IMG/VR virus record: IMGVR_UViG_2917886563_000005
Source of the DNA: a virus
Taxonomy: Duplodnaviria; Heunggongvirae; Uroviricota; Caudoviricetes
Direction: 5' to 3' (one strand)
DNA length: 38,089 bases
Part shown: positions 1-11,187 of the stretch, piece by piece
Layout: each line of letters opens with the position of its first letter
Numbering within the stretch: the first letter of the stretch is position 1
Notes under the pieces: model-generated
Database searches by the model: none
The model's input: the letters and a program-made list of their open reading frames with translations, nothing else
Told to the model about the DNA's origin: nothing
Made by a program: the position numbers and the translations under genes

Positions 1-477
1 ATGAAACTCATCAGTAATGATCTGCGCGATGGCGATAAGCTGCCGCATCGTCATGTCTTTAACGGCATGGGTTACGATGGCGATAATATTTCGCCGCATC
101 TGGCGTGGGATGATGTTCCTGCGGGAACCAAAAGTTTTGTTGTCACCTGCTATGACCCGGATGCGCCAACCGGCTCCGGCTGGTGGCACTGGGTAGTGGT
201 TAACTTACCCGCTGATACCCGCGTATTGCCGCAGGGGTTTGGCTCTGGTCTGGTAGCAATGCCAGACGGCGTTTTGCAGACGCGTACCGATTTTGGTAGA
301 ACCGGGTACGATGGCGCCGCGCCGCCGAAAGGCGAAACGCATCGCTACATTTTTACCGTTCACGCGCTGGATGTAGAACGTATTGATGTCGATGAAGGTG
401 CCAGCGGCGCGATGGTCGGGTTTAACGTCCATTTCCACTCTCTCGCCAGCGCCTCGATTACTGCGATGTTCAGTTAA
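1..477 (+). CDS. ybhB: Host PEBP-family protein YbhB (158 aa, complete); bio-side flank of the lambda att site
   Basis: Translation recalled as E. coli YbhB (PEBP/UPF0098 family); ORF starts at window position 1 and stops at 475-477. Confidence 0.85.
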   Translation: MKLISNDLRDGDKLPHRHVFNGMGYDGDNISPHLAWDDVPAGTKSFVVTCYDPDAPTGSGWWHWVVVNLPADTRVLPQGFGSGLVAMPDGVLQTRTDFGRTGYDGAAPPKGETHRYIFTVHALDVERIDVDEGASGAMVGFNVHFHSLASASITAMFS

Positions 478-485
478 TCACTCTG

Positions 486-508
486 CCAGATGGCGCAATG
501 CCATCTGG
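486..508 (+). terminator. Perfect 9-bp inverted repeat 9 nt after the ybhB stop; possible host terminator or REP-like hairpin
   Basis: ccagatggc-gcaat-gccatctgg read directly; no strong U-run follows. Confidence 0.3.
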
Positions 509-560
509 TATCACTTAAAGGTATTAAAAACAACTTTTTGTCTTTTTACCTTCCCGTTTC

Positions 561-725
561 GCTCAAGTTAGTATAAAAAAGCTGAACGCGAAACAGTAAA
601 AATCAATAATATCAATGCGTTACAATGCATTTAGTCTAAAAAATAGACTACATGATACTACAAAACACAACATATCCAGTCACTATGAATCAACTACTTA
701 GATAGTATTAGTGACCTGAGACAGA
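561..725 (-). other. attR: lambda-type att core (568..582, reverse orientation) with B' half-site toward ybhB and a lambda-like P arm on the prophage side
   Basis: ttagtataaaaaagc at 568..582 is the reverse complement of the lambda core GCTTTTTTATACTAA; cgctcaag precedes it; 583..725 resembles the lambda attP P arm (e.g. cagtcactatgaatcaactacttagat). Confidence 0.8.
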
Positions 726-1040
726 GCATTAGCGCAAGGTGATTTTTTGTCATCTTGCGCTAATTTTTTGTCACAAAAACATGTCGCACTCCAGAAGAGC
801 ACAAAGCCTTGCAATTCAGTGCAAAGCTTTGTGTGTCTCAGTTTTGTTTCATCAGTCACAGCACGCCATAGAATGCTGACTTGCTTGATGTGTCTGCGGT
901 TCACAATCCTTCAGCAATTTTCACAACTTGCCAGCAAACATCCAATGGCAACGCCTTATCGTCATGTTGCGCATTTACAAAATGCAATATAAATATGTTA
1001 AATTATTATAGAAATCACATAACGTTACGAGGGGTACACT

Positions 1041-2786
1041 GTGGGGATTTTTTTACTAGGCCGCAAGTTCGAAGGATCAAGCTTACTTTTTGATAAGGGA
1101 CGCTTATTTTTACAGAACAGCGTTGATGGAAATGTCTTCCTTGTAGTTGAGAAAGGAGGAAATCGAGCGTTTCTTCATACTGGTGAAAAATTTATAGATT
1201 TTGTTAGAGTTGGGCACTTGTCACATTTGAAATGCTATCTCTCACGTGAGAGCGACAGACTTTTATACTGCGTTTCATCATTAGGTGATGCTATTGAGAA
1301 GACAGTAACAGCAAACAGAACAAAAGCAAGTGGCTGGGAAACATTTGATATGCTTCCTGCAAAAGACTTAAGCGAATCATCCCTTAATCAAATAGAAATG
1401 CTTAAGGAAATATATTTTAAAAATGATGATTTAACATCTGTTTTCAACAGAATTGTTAGATCAGATTTGATTGACAAAGGAAGAACGATTGAAAAGCTAA
1501 TTGAAATAATGAGCGTCGACGATAAGACATATATCTCTTATCATCTATCTAAAAACATCAGTGAATTAGCAACGCTTTCTGATATTTCAGATGATGCGCT
1601 ATTTAAAGCATTTGTTTCAAACCTAACCAACTACAGCAAAAAAATATCTGTTATAGATGAAAAACTTGATTTTTTATCTAAGCTTTCGAACCAAATTATT
1701 TCTAAAAACAGCTGGATTGAACTAATTCATAATTTAAGAAAAATATCTCCACCAAAACATAAATCATGCATTGTTGCAACATGCAAAAATGAAGGTGTTT
1801 ATCTTATTGAGTGGATAGCTTACCATCTAAGCATTGGGTTTGATGCAATATTTATATATTCTAATGGTAATGATGATGGTTCTGACGAACTACTTAATAA
1901 TCTTCATAATGAAGGAATCATATACTACATAAAAAACATTGTTGGAGATGGTGTTAGTGCACAAAACAAGGCTTATGCTCATGCACTAACAATTAACAAG
2001 GAGGTTCTAAATTATGAATGGAGTCTTTTCATTGATATAGATGAATTTTTTGTTTTAAACGAATACATGTTTTCTTCCATCACTGATTATCTAGACTGGC
2101 AAAACAAAAATGAAACTGACGCAATTGCTTTAAACTGGATGTTTAGCAAACCAGTGGAAAATAGCGACTGGATAAACAATCCAATAACTAAAAGATTGCC
2201 ATATATTAATAAAGAAGCAAGCGCTCATATCAAAACATTTTTTAAGCCTCACAAATTCTCAGGCTCAACCCCTCATTTCCCATTGTGCAATAGCAATTAT
2301 AAGTTCGCATATAGAGACTCTTCAGGTAACATTCATGAAAAGTCCATCACAAAAAATGATTTATCATTTTCTAACAAACCACAAAACTCACACGCTTACA
2401 TTATTCATTACTTCAATAGAAGTATAGCTGAGTTTATTTGGAAATACTCTAGAAACAGAGGTAATCACCCAAATACAAAAAGCGGAAATAACTTTACAGA
2501 ACACTTATTTCAGTTCCTTGGCTTCTTCACATCATCATTAGACTCACCACGGTTCGTGGAGAATGAATCAATTGCTAAAATGACTGACATCATTGATTCA
2601 AAAATTAGCGAAATAGTAGCAAGCGAATCAATACAAATTGCGTATGAGAATGTTAAGAACAGGACAAGAGAGCGTTACGAATTAATCGAACCTTTATTTT
2701 GGGAGTATTTAAAGGGAAACATCAACTCAGAAAAACATAAAGACTCAATTTCAGATTTTATATCTAGATTTAAAGAAAAAGCCTAA
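1041..2786 (+). CDS. Cargo gene: 581-aa protein with N-terminal ~240-aa region of unknown function and C-terminal GT-A-fold glycosyltransferase-like domain; candidate lysogenic-conversion glycosyltransferase
   Basis: Motifs CIVATCKNEGVYLIEWIAYHLSIGFDAIFIYSNGNDDGSDELL and DIDEF look like GT2/GT92-type nucleotide-sugar transferases; visibly AT-rich versus flanks; GTG start at 1041 with GAGGGG 6 nt upstream (start uncertain, internal ATGs exist). Confidence 0.65.
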   Translation: MGIFLLGRKFEGSSLLFDKGRLFLQNSVDGNVFLVVEKGGNRAFLHTGEKFIDFVRVGHLSHLKCYLSRESDRLLYCVSSLGDAIEKTVTANRTKASGWETFDMLPAKDLSESSLNQIEMLKEIYFKNDDLTSVFNRIVRSDLIDKGRTIEKLIEIMSVDDKTYISYHLSKNISELATLSDISDDALFKAFVSNLTNYSKKISVIDEKLDFLSKLSNQIISKNSWIELIHNLRKISPPKHKSCIVATCKNEGVYLIEWIAYHLSIGFDAIFIYSNGNDDGSDELLNNLHNEGIIYYIKNIVGDGVSAQNKAYAHALTINKEVLNYEWSLFIDIDEFFVLNEYMFSSITDYLDWQNKNETDAIALNWMFSKPVENSDWINNPITKRLPYINKEASAHIKTFFKPHKFSGSTPHFPLCNSNYKFAYRDSSGNIHEKSITKNDLSFSNKPQNSHAYIIHYFNRSIAEFIWKYSRNRGNHPNTKSGNNFTEHLFQFLGFFTSSLDSPRFVENESIAKMTDIIDSKISEIVASESIQIAYENVKNRTRERYELIEPLFWEYLKGNINSEKHKDSISDFISRFKEKA

Positions 2787-2796
2787 TCAATTTTCT

Positions 2797-2826
2797 GCGG
2801 AGGTAATCCACCTCCGCTATTTTATA
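2797..2826 (+). terminator. Intrinsic terminator after the glycosyltransferase-like gene, between convergent genes
   Basis: gcggaggt-aatcc-acctccgc (8-bp stem) followed by tattttataat. Confidence 0.5.
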
Positions 2827-2851
2827 ATACATTGTGTGATTTACAATATTT

Positions 2852-5116
2852 TCATTTCGATGAGTTAATTGCCTCAATGATACGCTTCAGGATTTCATTA
2901 TTTCTGCGTTGTAATGCAGCCTCAAGGACTAAGGCCTCTTCATAACGGATCCCATAACGTGAGCCTGCCGGAGTGACCAGAATATCTTCATATTCTGGAT
3001 CTGCCTCTTCTTCATACTCTTCTTCGACTTCTTGAAACTCTGTCTCGATGTACTCTTCTTCTACATCTTCAACTACAGGGACGCTCACGAATGGATTTTG
3101 CGCAAATGGTGAACCATCTTCATTAAGAACAGGTATCATTTCCATTTTTGGAGCCTGATACTCTTCATTCACTACTCGTTTAATCCGTGTTCCGTCTTCC
3201 AGTACCTCATCCTTTAATACCTGACGACTCTCAGTAACCATCACTTGTTTGCTTACAATTCGAGTTTTAGTAACCTGCACAGGAACTGTTGTTATGCGAG
3301 TTTTAGTAACCATTACACCTTCGTTTGTCTGAACCTTAGTATATTGATCATCCCACTCGTCAAAGCAAAAGAATCCAAATCGGTGCACATCAAGCCCATG
3401 ACGTTCAAACGCCTCCTTTGCACGTTGAGCTATTACGCCAAAATGCCAACGAGCTCCGTCTTCTCCTTTTTCTTCTGTTCTGTCAAGATACTGAAATTGA
3501 ACGAAGTCAACCTCTGACCATGCGTCAAGTATTGTATCAGTGATTTCAAGAGGTGCAGTTTTAGCTCGCTCATCTGAAGTAACGGTAAAGGCTGTTTGAG
3601 TGAATCCACCAGACCACACACGACCAGCAGTTCCGACCGTGCTATTACTGTTCTGTGAGTATGGTGTAATAGATGAGTCTACTCTTACAACCCCATCCCC
3701 CTTTGGAGATAGCCTCAAATCAATATCTGTATCGCTTCCAGCAACGCCAACAGCAGGAGCATTAGATGCTGTCTGTGAGCGCATGGCTAGATAATTGGCA
3801 GGAACTGTAGGCCCAGACTCTATGGAAAATATAGGTAACCCAGACGATAATCGTGTAAATACTACGCCATTATCACTAAATAACATTCTGGTTGATCTGG
3901 TTGCATCCTCCAAAACAGAGAGTATTTCAGAAGTTTTCTGATTTGAATTGTTGTACCAAGTCATTGAGTGTCTATTACCAAAAGCAATTGCCACACCTTG
4001 ACCTGTTGATTCTCCGTCGGTTCCTTTAAGGCTATTGCTGCCAAATACGATGCCCTTCAGAAAGCGTGCTGTTTTCCCAGCAGTTTTGTCGTTAGCTATT
4101 ATTCCAATTGCTGCCGATGCAGCATTCAACACTTCTCCAGCTTGGGTTAATTCACCACCTGAGCCTAACCATAATGCGTCAGTCTGACCGTTGGGGAACA
4201 TTGAATTAGGATACAGTTCACGCTCATTCCCCCTGTTTGCTATATCAAGTTCAAGACCGTGACTTGCTCCGATTGTTCCTGCATTTCTTACAGTTGAACC
4301 ATAAAGTGCCCATGCGCTAGACCTAACACCTGATGAATCATCGTTGTAAGCCATCCCGGCTACGGCAAGAGCAGCATTACCCGGTTCACCATCTCCAGTA
4401 TGAGCAGATCCAAAAATTCCTATCCCATCTGGTGGGGCAATCCCAACATTTCTACAGTGTCGCTCTAAATAGAAATAAATATTTCCCCCTAGCCCTGCCA
4501 TCCATGGCACTTGCCTTAACCAATACCCACCAATGAATGTAACATCCATTTCCATTTCCCACGATGTAAGTGGGTCTGAAACAATATCCTGACTTAACAA
4601 ATAAGTGCCAGCAGGAATATAAATTTTGCGCCTTGTCGCATTAGCCGCAAGAAACGCTTCAGTAGAATCAACAACCCCTGTTGGGTCAGCACCTCCGGCA
4701 AAACCACTCCAAGTAACAGGCTTTGCTAATCCTCCGACAAATCCAGCTCCACCAGGCCCCTCCAGTTCAGATCGCAGTTGATCGGGGTCATACTTCAGCA
4801 CATTAGGAAAATAGAACTGCTGCGCACCATATGCATCATATACAGCCATAGAATGGCCTTGCACAGTTACGAACTTGGCAATCTGTCCGTTATATACCGG
4901 GTAACCAGCAGCGTTAATGATGATTGGTTGCGAAACAGGAAAGTGAGAGCCGTCTTCGTTCTCCACATAAACCTGAATCTGGTTTTCAGGATTTACCGGG
5001 TCAGTGTCAATTTTACCGATATAAATTTTGCCATTGGCTACGGCTTTAAAAGAACGCGCCATAGTGAAGAGTTGCGAAGGCATACTCACTACAACATTAG
5101 CTGTAATGTCTGTCAT
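2852..5116 (-). CDS. Tailspike: P22 gp9-like N-terminal head-binding domain, different central receptor-binding domain, C-terminal S74-type intramolecular chaperone and Glu-rich tail
   Basis: N-terminus [11 protein letters not shown]...[11 protein letters not shown]...VLKYDPDQ matches recalled P22 gp9 residues 1-~110; C-terminal SDERAK...WHFGVIAQ is characteristic of the autocleaving chaperone domain. Confidence 0.85.
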
Positions 5117-5183
5117 TTAATTTGCTCCAGATACAAGGAATCGCCGCAGCATTGCCACAGTGATGCATTATTAATCAAACAAA

Positions 5184-5198
5184 GGGACCGCTGTGGTC
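5184..5198. promoter_or_regulatory. Imperfect palindrome in the mnt-tailspike intergenic region; possible Mnt operator
   Basis: gggaccgctgtggtc contains GACC/GGTC half-sites; weak, from memory of P22 Omnt. Confidence 0.2.
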
Positions 5199-5262
5199 TT
5201 ATTGAGGATGCAACCAGCAGATAATAAGATGCCGATCCACTCACAAAAGCGAGGCATCAAGA

Positions 5263-5514
5263 ATGGGAAGAGATGACCCGCAATTTAATCTGCGGCTACC
5301 TTACGAATTAAAGGAAAAACTAAAACAGCGAGCCAAATCCAATGGTCGCTCTCTTAATTCAGAATTAGTTCAGATAGTGACTGATGCTGTATCAAAGCCA
5401 TCCAAAATTTCAGGCTATCGAGACGATGCGGAACGAATCGCTGATGAGCAGTCCGAACTTGTTAAGAAGATGGTGTTTGATACGCTGAAAGATTTGTACA
5501 AAAAACCCACCTGA
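5263..5514 (+). CDS. mnt: Mnt repressor (ribbon-helix-helix), 83 aa
   Basis: Translation MGRDDPQFNLRLPYELKEKLK...KKMVFDTLKDLYKKPT closely matches recalled P22 Mnt; GAGG upstream of ATG. Confidence 0.85.
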   Translation: MGRDDPQFNLRLPYELKEKLKQRAKSNGRSLNSELVQIVTDAVSKPSKISGYRDDAERIADEQSELVKKMVFDTLKDLYKKPT

Positions 5515-5530
5515 TGGTGGGTTCCATTTA
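5498..5530. terminator. Bidirectional intrinsic terminator shared by convergent mnt and lipoprotein genes
   Basis: aacccacc-tgat-ggtgggtt with A-run upstream and T-rich run downstream; stem overlaps the mnt stop codon. Confidence 0.5.
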
Positions 5531-5950
5531 TTAGTCTTGCTTTGTGGACGGTATAAGTGATGCATTTGCCTCTTTTGGCTTCAAGGTATACATTCCACCA
5601 TTAAATGGATCTACAGCAAGCCAACCAATTAACCCACCAAACACAAGGTTTCCACCAATATACCAACCATTAGCATTGGCTTTGATTGGCAAGGTTACTG
5701 GCTCGTACCCATCCTTTTCCATAGTGATCTGATAGCTCTTTTTGCCAAAATAACTACCATCTGACTTGGCAAGAGTTACTCCTTGCGGGGTCTTACCTTG
5801 CGCAACAATCACGCCTGATTCGTCTTTTACCTTAAAGCTCGCACCGGAAGGATTGCTGTTCACTTGCACAAGCTGTGTTTCGTCACCAACAATAGTTGCG
5901 CACCCAGATAACAATATAGCGCCAGCAACGACGCCGATAATCCTCTTCAT
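5531..5950 (-). CDS. Predicted lipoprotein (139 aa), function unknown; candidate superinfection-exclusion factor
   Basis: Signal peptide with lipobox MKRIIGVVAGAILLSGC; sits where P22 carries sieA/immI genes. Confidence 0.65.
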   Translation of the reverse strand: MKRIIGVVAGAILLSGCATIVGDETQLVQVNSNPSGASFKVKDESGVIVAQGKTPQGVTLAKSDGSYFGKKSYQITMEKDGYEPVTLPIKANANGWYIGGNLVFGGLIGWLAVDPFNGGMYTLKPKEANASLIPSTKQD

Positions 5951-6471
5951 ATTACTTTCCGTTTTGTTAGAATCAGAAAGATCTTAATAATAAAAAGTAT
6001 TTTCGTGAAGATATTGTCGATTGAGTTAATAACTCATTTACACCCAACAGTGCCATGATGGCAAAGATAAGGAGAGTTAATCATATGAAAAAATCACTGT
6101 TAATTATCCCGCTTCTGCTGGCAGGGTGTGCAAAGGTTAGCGACTATCAGGCAAGTTGCGAACAACGCTATCCAAAGCTTAGCGATATGGCTAATTGCCT
6201 TGATGCTAGCGTGAAGAACGACTCACGCATGGCATCAGCACCAACACCTAAGTTATATGTCCTTGCTGCGAAGATGCTCGGGCAAGGTGTCGATGATGGC
6301 AAGATAAGTGACGCGCAGGCAAGGCTTGAGCTTCAGAATCTTTATGTTCAATTACAAAGCCAAGAACAAGCCCAACAAATAGCGCAAAGCCAAGCATTCC
6401 AGCAGGCTTTATTGGAGTGCCCCCAAGCCCGTAGACAAATCTGCCCTATAGTTTGAGCATAGGAGGAGTCT

Positions 6472-6756
6472 ATGGGCACACCACGATTTACCCCAGAGTT
6501 TAAGGAGGAAGCTGTCCGTCAGGTTACTGAACGGGGCTATTCCGTTGCCGATGTTTCTGAACGCCTCGGCGTATCGGCTCACAGCCTTTATAAGTGGGTC
6601 CGGTCAGTCAGACCGGATAACAGCGAGCATCAGGCGCAGGATTTACTGGATGCGCGGACGGAGATTCTCAGGCTTAAAGCGCAGCTTAAACGTACTGAGG
6701 AAGAACGGGATATTCTGAAAAAGGCAGCGCGGTACTTTGCAAGGGAGCCCGACTGA
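6472..6756 (+). CDS. IS3-family transposase OrfA (HTH, leucine zipper), 94 aa
   Basis: MGTPRFTPEFKEEAVRQV...LKKAARYFA is typical of IS3-family OrfA; AGGAGG RBS. Confidence 0.85.
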   Translation: MGTPRFTPEFKEEAVRQVTERGYSVADVSERLGVSAHSLYKWVRSVRPDNSEHQAQDLLDARTEILRLKAQLKRTEEERDILKKAARYFAREPD

Positions 6757-7607
6757 AGTACCGCTTCATCAACGATCACCGTGAAATCTGGTCGATCGTA
6801 ACAATGTGTCGGGTTCTGAAGGTCGCCCGTGCGGGATTTTACGTCTGGCTTCATCGCCCTGTTTCTGCCGGAGAAAAGGATAATCAGCGGTTGCTGGAGC
6901 TCATCCGCGATGCTTATGCACTGAGCGGCGGAGTCTACGGTTATCGCAGGGTTCACGGCGATCTTCGTGAAATCGGTGAAGTATGCAGCAGAAACCGTGT
7001 TGCCAGAATCATGAAGCGGAACAGGATACAGGCCGTACATGGCTATAAGGTCCCGCGTGGCGTCAGGGGAAGGCCGTCACTGATAGCTCCTAATCGCGTA
7101 CAGCGGGAATTTACGGTGGTAAAACCCAACCAGGTGTGGGTAACTGATATTACCTACATCCGCACCTGGCAGGGTTGGCTGTATCTGGCGGTGGTTATCG
7201 ATCTTTTTGCCCGTAATGTGGTGGGCTGGTCGATGAAACCAACGCTGTCGCGCGAGCTGGCACTGGATGCGCTGCTGATGGCAGTCTGGCGGCGTAAGCC
7301 TGCAGAAAACGTCATAGTGCACAGCGATCAGGGCAGTCAGTATGGCAGTGATGACTGGCAGCGGTTCTGCAGGGCCAACAATCTGGCGCCGAGCATGAGC
7401 CGTCGTGGCAACTGCTGGGATAATGCGGTGGCAGAATCGTTCTTCAGTTCACTGAAAAAAGAGCGCATCAGAAAGCGGATATATAAAACCCGGGACATGG
7501 CCCGGGCGGATATCTTCGATTACATTGAAGTGTTCTACAACCGGACCCGACGCCACAGTCATCTGGGTGGCGTCAGCCCGGAGGCCTTCGAAAAGGCCTC
7601 ACCGTGA
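6717..7607 (+). CDS. IS3-family transposase OrfB (DDE catalytic domain), made as an OrfAB fusion by -1 frameshift near GAAAAAG (6717..6723); first ATG of the OrfB frame is at 6804
   Basis: OrfB frame is open from the slippery run to 7607; conserved ...ITYIRTWQGWLYLAVVIDLF...HSDQGSQY...DNA... DDE-type motifs; stop lies within the right inverted repeat. Confidence 0.8.
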   Translation, partial: EKGSAVLCKGARLKYRFINDHREIWSIVTMCRVLKVARAGFYVWLHRPVSAGEKDNQRLLELIRDAYALSGGVYGYRRVHGDLREIGEVCSRNRVARIMKRNRIQAVHGYKVPRGVRGRPSLIAPNRVQREFTVVKPNQVWVTDITYIRTWQGWLYLAVVIDLFARNVVGWSMKPTLSRELALDALLMAVWRRKPAENVIVHSDQGSQYGSDDWQRFCRANNLAPSMSRRGNCWDNAVAESFFSSLKKERIRKRIYKTRDMARADIFDYIEVFYNRTRRHSHLGGVSPEAFEKASP

Positions 7608-7894
7608 GGACAGAAACTGTCTACCGGAATGTGGTCACTCCATTATTGAATTATCAGGCTGTAAACACAATGCAAGCGATCGAGCAAAAAGCGAGACAGC
7701 CTGTTATAACTCAACCCTATCCAACACGAGTTGACACTTACACAAACTGCAATTCAGGGTTTGGAAATACAGTCACATGCAACAGTAGCAGTAACATCAG
7801 ATAACAATCAGCAAAGGTATCGCCTATGCAGAGGGATACGATAAACCTCGCGTTCTACATATTTGATTTTTGCACGTTCCTGGTGTTTGAAAAG

Positions 7895-9892
7895 CTATTC
7901 TGACAACGCATCAGACTTAACACCCTGCGTCATAGCGTTAATAGCCTTTTGTGCCTGCTTCATGGCTTTCTCAAACGCTGTTGATCCGCGTGGGGTATTT
8001 GCCATTCGTAGCATTGCATTTCTGAATGGCTCACTCTCATAGGCGCGAGCAAGAAGGCCGTAGCTTACTGCTGCGCCAGTTGTCGCCGGGTTCATTGCCG
8101 TCCCATATCCGATAATGAACGGGATGGTTTGCTGCCCTGTTGGTGTTGTTACTGCCGCTTTTGCAGCCTGCTGCGTGGATTGCAGGTAGTTTTTCAATCC
8201 CCTCAGGTAAGCAGCATCCTGCCCCTTAAATGTGATACCCGTTTGGTTTTGCAGGATGTTAAGCTGTCGAAGGAACTGGTCAGGGGATCCACCTGATTTC
8301 TCTATCGCCTTTCCAATGATGCCATTGCGCATTTGCGCTCTTCCAACGCGACCAACTGAGTTATACAGCGTCTTAATTTCCGATTTGTTCTTGCTGAATA
8401 GCATGTTATTCACAACTTCCGGCGTCAGGTCGCCTTTCATGAGAATATTCTTCAGCCTGGTATTCTTTAGTTTCGCCGCTTCGTCAGCGTAGACGGCATT
8501 GGCCTGCTGATATTTACGAAGAGTATCATTGCCAAGATTCTGACCAATGGCACCATTGATATCGTCGGTCATCGCCTTGTAAACGCGCTGTATGGCGGCA
8601 TCGGAACGGTTTGGTAACACTGGTCGCTCACCCTTCACGTCCATTCTGAACTGGCTGCGCAGATCGCTTAATTGCTTCAAATCCAGATTTACCGGACCAT
8701 CAGGACCAGCATTGCGAATAAGCTCATCACGATAGGATTGAAGTTTTGAAATCGTCTCGTTATCAGCGACCTTACCAAGCTTCTGCAGGTTAGATATCTC
8801 AGTATCAATCTGCTGAATTGCTCGCACAGGCTGAATGTTGACTCCCGCCATTGCATTCTGAACCTGTTCAAGTCGATTACCTGCAGCACGACGAATTCCT
8901 GATGTTTTCGCTTTAAGGCTTTCAATAACAACAGCTGGATCATACTCACCGAATTTATCAGCAAATCTCTGCACCAACTGGCTTCTCGCTTCCTGTTGCG
9001 TTGCTCTCATTCCGCTTGTGCCAGCCAGAGGGATATTTTCTGCTGTAGTCTGCGCCATTTTTCCGACGCGGGAAGTAGGTTGTAACAGGTCTGTGGTGTG
9101 CAGAGGCACTCCTTCACGCTCTGCAAACCTGATAGCCTGTTGCGCTTCTGGCGCTATCGCACCACGAACTCCACGATAAGCAGCACCTAATCCACGTCCG
9201 GCAGCGTTAATAGCTCCGCCAGCCAGAACGCCAACGCCTAAGTCGGTGGCTAGTGCTTCCGCATCATCTTTCACACTGTTTGCAGCAAGTGATCCAACTG
9301 CGTTTTCAGCGAGAAGGCGAGTTGCACCCTGAGCAATTCGACCAGCAAGTGTTGGTGCCTGTGTTGCCGCTCTCTCAACGCCGGCAGGAGTGAGGTAAGG
9401 CAATGCTTCAGCAAATACCCTGCCCTCTGTCGTTTGTGGAGTCAGCGCACCTTGCTGAAGGCCAAAGTCCTGCTCTAATCCATGCGTTGTTACTCGTGGC
9501 GCTGGTTGATATGTTCCATCGCCAATGCCGAGTTTACCGCCAGCCCATGCAGCCGCGCTTGTTACAGCATCGGCAACCGATGCAGGTATGTTTGCCACGT
9601 TCACGCCAGCCTGCACCAGTCCGCGACCAGTCTCTTTTACTGCTTCGCCAAGATCAGACATAAATCCACTTTGCTGTGGTTGTTGCTGTGCTACTGGTTG
9701 CTGTGTCTCCACTGGCTGCACAGATGGCAATGGATAGGCAGCATAGAAAGCTTGCTTAGCCTGCTCTGCATTTTCTCCGGCTTGCGGGGCCACGACTTCA
9801 TTGAAGTATTGCTCCTGAGCCTGCGCTTTTTGTTCTGGTGCTAACGCCTGATACTGTGGAGAGGCGATAACATCTTTCCATGCTTTAGCCAT
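7895..9892 (-). CDS. P22 gp16-like ejection (E) protein
   Basis: Position and size (665 aa) in the conserved P22 order 4-10-26-14-7-20-16; Ala/Gly/Gln-rich. Confidence 0.7.
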   Translation of the reverse strand: MAKAWKDVIASPQYQALAPEQKAQAQEQYFNEVVAPQAGENAEQAKQAFYAAYPLPSVQPVETQQPVAQQQPQQSGFMSDLGEAVKETGRGLVQAGVNVANIPASVADAVTSAAAWAGGKLGIGDGTYQPAPRVTTHGLEQDFGLQQGALTPQTTEGRVFAEALPYLTPAGVERAATQAPTLAGRIAQGATRLLAENAVGSLAANSVKDDAEALATDLGVGVLAGGAINAAGRGLGAAYRGVRGAIAPEAQQAIRFAEREGVPLHTTDLLQPTSRVGKMAQTTAENIPLAGTSGMRATQQEARSQLVQRFADKFGEYDPAVVIESLKAKTSGIRRAAGNRLEQVQNAMAGVNIQPVRAIQQIDTEISNLQKLGKVADNETISKLQSYRDELIRNAGPDGPVNLDLKQLSDLRSQFRMDVKGERPVLPNRSDAAIQRVYKAMTDDINGAIGQNLGNDTLRKYQQANAVYADEAAKLKNTRLKNILMKGDLTPEVVNNMLFSKNKSEIKTLYNSVGRVGRAQMRNGIIGKAIEKSGGSPDQFLRQLNILQNQTGITFKGQDAAYLRGLKNYLQSTQQAAKAAVTTPTGQQTIPFIIGYGTAMNPATTGAAVSYGLLARAYESEPFRNAMLRMANTPRGSTAFEKAMKQAQKAINAMTQGVKSDALSE

Positions 9893-11187
9893 TAATCACC
9901 CCATAGTGAAGAAAAGTTACTGCCAGTAGTAGATTGTTGCCCTGGCATATTCTGCACCGGCTCCTGATAATCAAACTGTTTTTTAACAGTGCTCAACTTG
10001 CTTTCAAGCTGATTTCTAATCTTTCCGATAGAGTCACGAAAAGCCTTTTCACTCATTTTGGGGCTTAGGGCACCAACCGCATCGGATAATTTTTTACCCT
10101 CAGCATCTGAAAGAGCGCCCATACCCTTCAGGGACTGCACCATAGGAAGGAATGTTTGAGCTTTAAAGGTGTCGAGCCTTGCTTCAAAGTTAGCCGCATC
10201 AGAGCCAGGAACTGTCGGAAACGCTGAGCGAATTCCTACTGCTTTTGAAAGGCCGGGGCTTTGCTCTATCTCGTTGAGAGAATCAAGCGCGGTGCTGAAC
10301 GTATCAACTGCACCCTGAGCGGCGGCCTGCCTGTCAGCGCGGGCTATGTCAGCCTTTTGCCGAACATCTGCCTGTTTCTGTTTTAGCTCTTCAAGCTTTA
10401 ACTGATTGCTTTCTCTGGCTATCTGTCTGTCCAGAGCCTTTTCTTGTAATTCTGCTCTTTGTATTTCGCGGGAAAGAGCAGCATTCTGTGCGCTGATGTT
10501 CTGTCCACGTATCTGGATGTCCTGACCTCGAGCTGTTAGTGCTTCTCCAGCCTGATTGCTGCGGATTGTCTCTGCCAGTCTGCCTCGGTCAATCTCACGA
10601 CCAGCCATTTTGTCCTGAACATTGAAGTAATCAATCGGACCAAGAGCAGCCATTCCAAGGTGATCAACAAACTCACCAAATCCTGAAGGGTTCTGCTGAT
10701 ACATCTGAGCAACGTTGTTAGGATCAACACCGACGCGCGCCAGCTCCTTGGCGTTGTTTTGCAGCCAGGATTGCATTGCTTTTGGCGATGATGATGCAAG
10801 GCGAGCGCCAGCCGCTAAGGTGCCGATAGAATTGCGCTGGTCTTCATCAATGAATCCCATTCCTTTACGAACAGATTCAATCTGGTCTGGATATTGAGTA
10901 GCCAACTGACGCAAAGCACCACGATCACCAGACGCATAAGCATTAGCGTACGCCTGCTGAAATTCTTTCTGCCGCTGAGCCTGCTTTTCCTGCTGAAAAA
11001 CACCCGCAATACCTGAAATACCTTGCAAAGCCGTCAGTCCAACATTGTTAGCGCCTGAACGCTCAATATCATTGTTCTGCCTGATAAGCTGAAGCGTATT
11101 TCCGATGTCATTTACGCTCGGAGCGTTTGAGTTGACGCCGCCGATACCAGCCAACAATCCGCCGTTTGTTCCTTGCCAAGTAGCCAT
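9892..11187 (-). CDS. P22 gp20-like ejection protein
   Basis: Gene-order position; 431 aa; coupled to flanking genes. Confidence 0.65.
   Translation of the reverse strand: MATWQGTNGGLLAGIGGVNSNAPSVNDIGNTLQLIRQNNDIERSGANNVGLTALQGISGIAGVFQQEKQAQRQKEFQQAYANAYASGDRGALRQLATQYPDQIESVRKGMGFIDEDQRNSIGTLAAGARLASSSPKAMQSWLQNNAKELARVGVDPNNVAQMYQQNPSGFGEFVDHLGMAALGPIDYFNVQDKMAGREIDRGRLAETIRSNQAGEALTARGQDIQIRGQNISAQNAALSREIQRAELQEKALDRQIARESNQLKLEELKQKQADVRQKADIARADRQAAAQGAVDTFSTALDSLNEIEQSPGLSKAVGIRSAFPTVPGSDAANFEARLDTFKAQTFLPMVQSLKGMGALSDAEGKKLSDAVGALSPKMSEKAFRDSIGKIRNQLESKLSTVKKQFDYQEPVQNMPGQQSTTGSNFSSLWGD

Follow-up and report, generated by a model that had tools for sequence, protein, structure and literature searches.

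A tailspike-linked prophage glycosyltransferase as a candidate agent of lysogenic capsule conversion in Escherichia coli

This study concerns a single gene carried at one end of a P22-like prophage of Escherichia coli, and the possibility that its product alters the surface polysaccharide recognized by the phage itself. The gene lies in a 38,089-nucleotide caudoviricete sequence (IMG/VR record IMGVR_UViG_2917886563_000005), the whole of which is referred to below as the window. A sequence-only reading had described it as an AT-rich open reading frame (ORF) of 581 amino acids (aa) with two recognizable motifs and no obvious transmembrane segments, placed between the tailspike gene and the prophage/host junction attR, and this description was borne out. 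The ORF (1041..2786, plus strand) is intact and starts with GTG, both motifs, CIVATCKNEGVYLIEWIAYHLSIGFDAIFIYSNGNDDGSDELL and DIDEF, occur in its translation, and the Prokaryotic Genome Annotation Pipeline (PGAP) calls the same 581-aa frame in strain ATCC 43886, where the copy is 96% identical. Its GC content is 0.328 (0.285 at third codon positions, GC3), compared with 0.474 in the window as a whole and about 0.50 in the structural/virion genes. The 19-residue Kyte-Doolittle mean of the protein peaks at 1.28, and no transmembrane helix is therefore expected. The features surrounding the gene, which encodes a glycosyltransferase (GT), are the following.

1..477: ybhB (PEBP), the upstream host gene next to the attachment (att) site
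568..582: lambda-type att core TTAGTATAAAAAAGC (reverse complement of GCTTTTTTATACTAA), read from the sequence; prophage/host junction attR beside ybhB
728..764, plus strand: sib/tI-like hairpin terminator of the lambda-type P arm, with a 16-bp stem and a T-run
794..914: left junction common to argW-type P22-like prophages with either GT or O-acetyltransferase as cargo (blastn of the window against L001, L022 and L023)
1030..1034, plus strand: Shine-Dalgarno sequence AGGGG, 6 nt before the GTG, read from the sequence
1041..2786, plus strand: gene for the 581-aa soluble GT
2797..2817: GC-rich hairpin, a bidirectional intrinsic terminator between the convergent GT and tailspike genes
2852..5116, minus strand: 754-aa P22-type tailspike (Head_binding and Peptidase_S74), convergent with the GT gene

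Positions 565-850 match the attP regions of the lambda-like phages HK97, 434 and HK106, and the matching region of the HK97 record is annotated as 'sib retroregulation site'. The att core at 568-582, the lambda/HK97/434-like attP arm that follows it and the adjoining ybhB gene thus identify the attR of a lambda-site integration, with the P22-type tailspike on the other side of the GT gene. Homology to the acetyltransferase-carrying remnant L022 ends at 914. A scan of window positions 1-8000 against Rfam gave no match. The GT allele of the window has no repeat tract, its only homopolymers being T7 at 1048 and A7 at 1638.

The catalytic half of the protein matched PF13704 (Glyco_tranf_2_4; 65.3 bits against a cut-off of 27.5, aa 249-341) and PF01697 (GT92; 34.5 bits against 23, aa 254-436), Pfam matches being counted above gathering thresholds. 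An AlphaFold2 (AF2) model built on an alignment of 38 homologues, with a mean predicted local distance difference test score (pLDDT) of 90.4 and a predicted template modelling score (pTM) of 0.88, resolved four parts, which are listed here together with the catalytic motif.

aa 1-106 (1041..1358, plus strand): 11-stranded beta-trefoil, similar to lectins or carbohydrate-binding modules, with an invariant WExF motif (E100, F102)
aa 112-235 (1374..1745, plus strand): all-helical linker domain, from the AF2 helices
aa 240-470 (1758..2450, plus strand): GT-A catalytic domain, alpha/beta, GT92-like / Glyco_tranf_2_4
2034..2042, plus strand: DxD motif D332-I-D334, followed by E335, invariant in the 38 homologues
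aa 487-577 (2499..2771, plus strand): C-terminal helical bundle with one 31-residue helix

Downstream of the DxD motif, H412 is likewise invariant in the 38 homologues. The fold is of the GT-A Rossmann-like type and not a left-handed beta-helix. Its best Foldseek match in the PDB was SunS; the profile of the 38-sequence alignment retrieved no PDB sequence, NCBIfam held no match to the protein, PHROGs gave insignificant matches only, and fold comparison against BFVD returned only distant giant-virus GT92/GT2 folds. Profile search, fold and conserved DxD motif agree with the earlier assignment of the protein to the GT-A glycosyltransferases. The N-terminal ~240 aa, previously said to match nothing recognizable, resolve in the model into a beta-trefoil and a helical domain, and that description still holds for the latter (aa 112-235), for which no Pfam, PHROG or NCBIfam match was found. 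The lack of resemblance to membrane-bound GtrABC or to an O-acetyltransferase was also confirmed: what lies between att and tailspike is one gene for a single soluble GT-A protein, not a GtrABC module of GtrA flippase, GtrB bactoprenol glycosyltransferase and GtrC. The product is thus predicted from sequence and model to be a soluble, cytoplasmic, metal-dependent GT-A glycosyltransferase of a GT92-like clade; our guess for its donor sugar, by analogy with characterized GT92 enzymes, would be UDP-Gal.

The GT gene forms part of a larger mobile unit that includes the receptor-binding portion of the tailspike. The limits of this unit, the domains of the tailspike and the alternative cargo found in sister prophages are as follows.

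990..4768: GT and receptor-binding-domain cassette common to the window and the E. coli GN25 siphovirus prophage, stopping at the tailspike head-binding-domain boundary
915..2899: cargo-specific swap unit, consisting of promoter region, GT gene, terminator and the last ~17 tailspike codons, from comparison with sister remnants
Tailspike aa 1-118: P22/Sf6 head-binding domain
Tailspike aa ~130-455: central receptor-binding domain, lacking relatives among solved structures and isolated phages
Tailspike aa ~456-607: S74 intramolecular-chaperone domain
L022:4326-4907 (PK8276): 193-aa hexapeptide O-acetyltransferase in the GT slot of an argW remnant

Between the window and GN25, blastn identity across the cassette is 73.8% at 990-3623 and 68.9% at 4195-4768. 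The GN25 GT is 75% identical to that of the window, and its gene converges on that of a 780-aa tail fibre. Residues 137-772 of this fibre align with residues 114-748 of the window tailspike at 66% identity, while the virion-docking N-termini of the two proteins are unrelated. As judged by sequence comparison, the GT gene and the receptor-binding domain of the tailspike have therefore moved jointly between a podovirus and a siphovirus prophage in E. coli. The lambda-type arm of the window, as opposed to the argW/IntS prophages that carry the cassette elsewhere, further indicates that the GT-tailspike cassette has moved between integration modules as well as tail types; at the ybhC/ybhB site this arm (568-790, with its att core and sib-like hairpin) is joined to a P22-like virion module. 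In sister remnants, the equivalent of 915..2899 is replaced by a 930-bp module encoding the O-acetyltransferase. The decayed argW remnants of QML220614 (L023, with the GT) and PK8276 (L022, with the acetyltransferase) have flanks 99.3-99.95% identical and differ in the cargo alone. This slot acetyltransferase is 36-39% identical to hexapeptide genes flanking the GT homologues P0011 and P0026, and is probably a capsule O-acetylase. Named 'CatB-related O-acetyltransferase' in the sister prophages, it was considered as a possible NeuO and ruled out, the identity being 47% over 53 residues only.

The closest cellular relatives of the GT, 47-53% identical over their full length, are serotype-specific genes inside group-3-type kps capsule loci of E. 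coli. Two of these, P0007 (49% identical) and P0008 (47%), match the window protein over its full length, share its four-domain architecture and are sited in region 2, between a large methyltransferase gene and ugd. Their loci follow the order kpsD-M-T-E / region 2 / kpsC(-S), with a conserved block of three GT genes and rmlBDAC; one is 100% identical to E. coli plasmid NZ_CP101012, and related loci are mostly on plasmids. They fit the 'subgroup 3B' group 3 capsule loci (TBA_3/7/8-type) of Hong et al. 2023 (PMC10433991), and the catalytic domain of the window GT is 30-36% identical to other GT92-type genes of subgroup-3B loci. Another homologue, P0010, lies in an Aeromonas polysaccharide cluster, and the more distant P0026 in a Wzm/Wzt(+Wzt_C)/WbdD-like locus for ABC-transporter O-polysaccharide. 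Full-length homologues were not encountered in any Wzx/Wzy locus; all the cellular contexts seen were of the ABC-transporter type.

Prophage-borne relatives, in turn, always adjoin receptor-binding genes, whether in a Pseudomonas fluorescens siphovirus, a myovirus-type element, the E. coli GN25 siphovirus or the argW P22-like prophages. The P. fluorescens gene (L007:10001-11737) lies between tail fibre and lysis genes, and the myovirus-type gene (L027:10001-12441) directly follows baseplate and fibre genes and is paired with a hexapeptide acetyltransferase. Given the contexts of these two family members, which are 31-32% identical to the window GT, the arrangement of a GT beside a receptor-binding protein is not limited to E. 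coli. Searching 50,697 phage records by tblastn revealed no match to the GT in any isolated phage, and the N-terminal 238 aa, searched exhaustively with phmmer, retrieved only four cluster representatives; the N-terminal module is rare and too fast-diverging for single-sequence search.

The distribution of the cassette was surveyed in 5,426 complete E. coli genomes. Five carried it (ATCC 43886, E2528-C1, 2014EL-1343-2, QML220614 and GN25), and all five belong to the 13 genomes with the serotype-specific segment of one group-3-type kps locus linked to pheV. The hypergeometric probability of this overlap is 3e-14, or 1.4e-8 if only three independent acquisitions are counted. The gsp genes beside kps are 97.2% identical between ATCC 43886 and GN25, less than the kps locus itself (99.3-99.6%), indicating that the carriers are not one clone. 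In contrast, a complete O25 cluster was found in 35 genomes, including eight of the 13 kps-matched genomes and three of the five GT carriers; QML220614 and GN25 lack it, and both the GT cassette and this kps locus are absent from the other 27 O25 genomes. Carriage is thus linked to the K locus rather than to the O locus. In the remaining kps-matched genomes the acetyltransferase adjoins, at argW, a related tail fibre (56% identical); this acetyltransferase and fibre cassette occurs in 14 complete genomes, namely the 13 kps-matched ones and one more.

In ATCC 43886 the kps locus at pheV reads kpsDMTE / methyltransferase / GH99-like/WbsX / GT2 (413 aa) / ugd / ... / three-GT block / rfbBDAC / kpsCS. 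It is syntenic with the subgroup-3B-type plasmid loci, at 52-92% protein identity, and has no P0007-type gene. An identification of this capsule as K98, from the serotype O25:K98:NM of ATCC 43886, was dropped because the K98 reference KpsD of kTYPr groups with K96, K3 and K10 (subgroup 3A), whereas the locus found here is of subgroup-3B type. Two further observations were made on these hosts. The mcr-10 plasmid of GN25 (L017) bears a further, related kps locus, and in ATCC 43886 the O25 genes wzy and wbjC are annotated as frameshifted (L025:5815-6920 and 10095-11157).

The GT gene appears functional and is under purifying selection. Compared with the 76%-identical P0002 lineage, the window allele shows a ratio of nonsynonymous to synonymous substitution rates (dN/dS) of 0.09 (GT domain 0.04, N-terminal half 0.15), and values between close alleles are 0.24-0.28. 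The exact protein recurs in three independent assemblies, all at the same ybhB site, and a ~5-kb prophage remnant stripped of almost everything else still has the gene and intS.

Synthesis of polymers exported by ABC transporters is completed before they leave the cytoplasm, which makes them accessible to a soluble GT, much as the K1 capsule is to NeuO and teichoic acid to TarP. With moderate confidence, we therefore favour lysogenic K-antigen conversion, in which the prophage GT acts in the cytoplasm on the kps capsule. Once expressed from the prophage, the enzyme would modify a capsular polysaccharide that the ABC-transporter (kps, group-3-type) pathway makes wholly within the cytoplasm. Acting at the inner membrane, on its cytoplasmic side, it would bind the growing chain through its beta-trefoil and, before export, add a sugar by means of the GT92-like domain. 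The placement of this sugar, probably as a side branch, and the exclusion of phages from the modified cell are steps that we infer. The K antigen, which the phage's own tailspike family would recognize and probably cleave, would be altered into a poorer substrate for that family, so that the lysogen may no longer serve well as a receptor for the phage or related phages and may change in antigenicity. The GT gene would then represent one half of a mobile two-gene cassette that couples a receptor-editing GT to a receptor-reading tailspike domain. The previous suggestion of a single-gene serotype-conversion module is consistent with the conversion slot between tailspike and att; its O-antigen framing is not supported, since carriage follows kps.

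A broader generalization is offered tentatively, as falling a little short of an even chance. The beta-trefoil/GT92-like family may be exchanged between temperate phages and ABC-transporter loci for capsule or O-polysaccharide, with a portable 'edit-and-read' cassette (a capsule-editing GT and the matching tailspike domain) hopping among podovirus and siphovirus prophages and alternating with an O-acetyltransferase, group-3-type K antigens thus being converted by glycosylation.

Several observations weigh against capsule conversion. The capsule is suggested as acceptor by association and genomic context, and an O unit linked to undecaprenyl pyrophosphate (Und-PP) would in principle be open to modification by a cytoplasmic GT as well. 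The window host itself (draft assembly GCA_004745245.1) stands outside the survey of complete genomes, and the co-occurrence of GT and kps could be due to a host range set by something else linked to these lineages. The capsule loci of two carriers are damaged: GN25 has an IS1 in the kpsE gene of its chromosomal kps (L029:11573-13248), and the GT92 (wckU-like) gene of ATCC 43886 is split (L021:13092-14011). This damage may represent capsule inactivation under phage pressure. ATCC 43886 may, with its frameshifted O25 genes, be rough, or its assembly may contain homopolymer errors, which would bear on the split kps GT92 gene as well. A scan for consensus promoters upstream of the GT gene passed no site. 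Finally, the GT copy of GN25 contains a homopolymer frameshift (G6 to G8, codon ~65; L016:~9165) and that of QML220614 another (A7 to A6 near codon 565; L023:~6937), and the GT/tailspike pair is therefore not intact everywhere. These frameshifts may reflect sequencing or assembly error, decay, or slipped-strand phase variation; phase variation of the window allele was rejected, the poly-G tract being confined to the P0002/GN25 lineage.

Among the alternatives, the one closest to the earlier idea of O-antigen modification cargo has the soluble GT adding a side-branch sugar to the Und-PP-linked O unit before Wzx flipping, with a tailspike specific for O antigen as in P22, Sf6 and HK620. The gene does occupy the classical O-antigen conversion locus of P22-like phages, the tailspike shares 89-93% identity with Sf6 and HK620 in its head-binding domain, and three of the five carriers are O25. 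We nevertheless regard this explanation as unlikely, given the two carriers without an O25 cluster, the 27 O25 genomes without the cassette and the exclusively ABC-transporter-type contexts of the cellular homologues; the original proposal lacks support on the same grounds, as carriers track a rare group-3-type kps and not O25, and the nearest cellular homologues are capsule region-2 genes. Quite improbable, in our estimation, is glycosylation of some other target, such as the lipopolysaccharide core, enterobacterial common antigen, colanic acid, a protein or a peptide, for which one may cite the top Foldseek match to SunS, an S-glycosyltransferase of a type that is also prophage-borne, and the helical domains, which could serve as protein-recognition modules.

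That the gene is a silent or decaying passenger with no current function appears very improbable: the window copy is intact with a good Shine-Dalgarno sequence, and the dN/dS values (0.09-0.28), the exact protein in three independent assemblies and the retention with intS in a remnant all speak against it, although two complete-genome copies have homopolymer frameshifts, no consensus promoter was found and the window prophage contains an IS3-family insertion. A defence or anti-defence factor, glycosylating for instance DNA or a component of host immunity, had also been envisaged from the sequence, and an AT-rich moron at a prophage end is indeed typically placed for defence cargo. We consider this role extremely unlikely, since PADLOC returned no family at E<=1, the close cellular homologues are capsule-locus genes, and the GT-A fold found here differs from that of the T4 DNA glucosyltransferases, which are GT-B enzymes; moreover, we know of no hypermodified base pathway encoded by P22-like genomes.

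Capsule conversion by the window GT would resemble most closely that by NeuO, the polysialic-acid O-acetyltransferase of E. coli K1. In the prophage CUS-3, the order int / neuO / endosialidase tailspike places neuO in the same slot of a P22-like prophage, the tailspike likewise has an S74 chaperone domain, and NeuO is a cytoplasmic enzyme whose target is an ABC-transporter (kps) capsule recognized by the phage's own tailspike. However, NeuO belongs to the hexapeptide acetyltransferases and its gene has a phase-variable heptanucleotide tract, whereas the window gene encodes a GT-A domain with a beta-trefoil and has no repeat tract; and capsule modification by NeuO has been demonstrated (PMC3046976, PMC13001214), whereas we infer it for the window GT. 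TarP of Staphylococcus aureus prophages is similar in fold and logic but only 12-15% identical, and differs in its ribitol-phosphate teichoic acid target, the lack of a beta-trefoil, its Gram-positive host and the absence of linkage to a tailspike gene. The GtrABC and Oac systems of P22, Sf6 and SfV share the slot between tailspike and att and the logic of editing the phage's receptor, but their proteins are integral to the membrane and modify Wzx/Wzy O antigen in the periplasm, whereas the window GT is single, soluble and tracks a capsule locus. Subgroup-3B kps region-2 GTs, represented by P0007 and P0008, share the four-domain architecture but are resident capsule-locus genes, in contrast to the window gene, which is prophage-borne outside kpsDMTE-kpsCS, much lower in GC and paired with a tailspike. 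The plant GT92 galactan synthase GalS1 (PDB 8d3t) is a eukaryotic Golgi enzyme of 12% identity, and its beta-1,4-galactosyltransferase specificity is not transferable. By sequence, the combination of beta-trefoil and GT92 has no solved relative.

Conversion of O antigen is known to proceed via the membrane-bound Gtr and Oac systems and, to our knowledge, lysogenic conversion of an E. coli capsule has so far been known only as K1 O-acetylation by NeuO. In our literature searches we encountered no report of an E. coli kps capsule being modified by a prophage glycosyltransferase, and the kTYPr paper lists modifiers outside kps as yet to be identified. If correct, our interpretation would extend lysogenic conversion to capsule glycosylation, providing both a Gram-negative counterpart of S. 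aureus TarP and a glycosyltransferase counterpart of the capsule-acetylating prophage gene neuO. It would also mean that K-antigen determinants exist outside kps, where genotype-based K typing does not capture them, and that kps genotype alone may mispredict the K antigen, with a bearing on host-range prediction in phage therapy and on capsule-based vaccines for enterotoxigenic (ETEC) and extraintestinal pathogenic (ExPEC) E. coli lineages. PK8276 and QML220614, near-isogenic around argW and differing in acetyltransferase versus GT, constitute a ready experimental pair.

Beyond the cassette, the window contains an IS3-family element at 6472-7607, with orfA at 6472-6756 (HTH_Tnp_1) and orfB at 6804-7607 (rve), inserted in an immI-like region between the Mnt/Arc gene and a gp16-like ejection gene. 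The element is present in one of the two other assemblies with the exact GT (L030), the contig of the second (L031) stopping short of that position, and the window prophage may be impaired by this insertion. Between the Mnt gene and the insertion element, positions 5531-5950 (minus strand) encode a predicted lipoprotein of 139 aa (MKRIIGVVAGAILLSGC...) with a weak match to the PEGA domain, which represents a second moron close to the tailspike.

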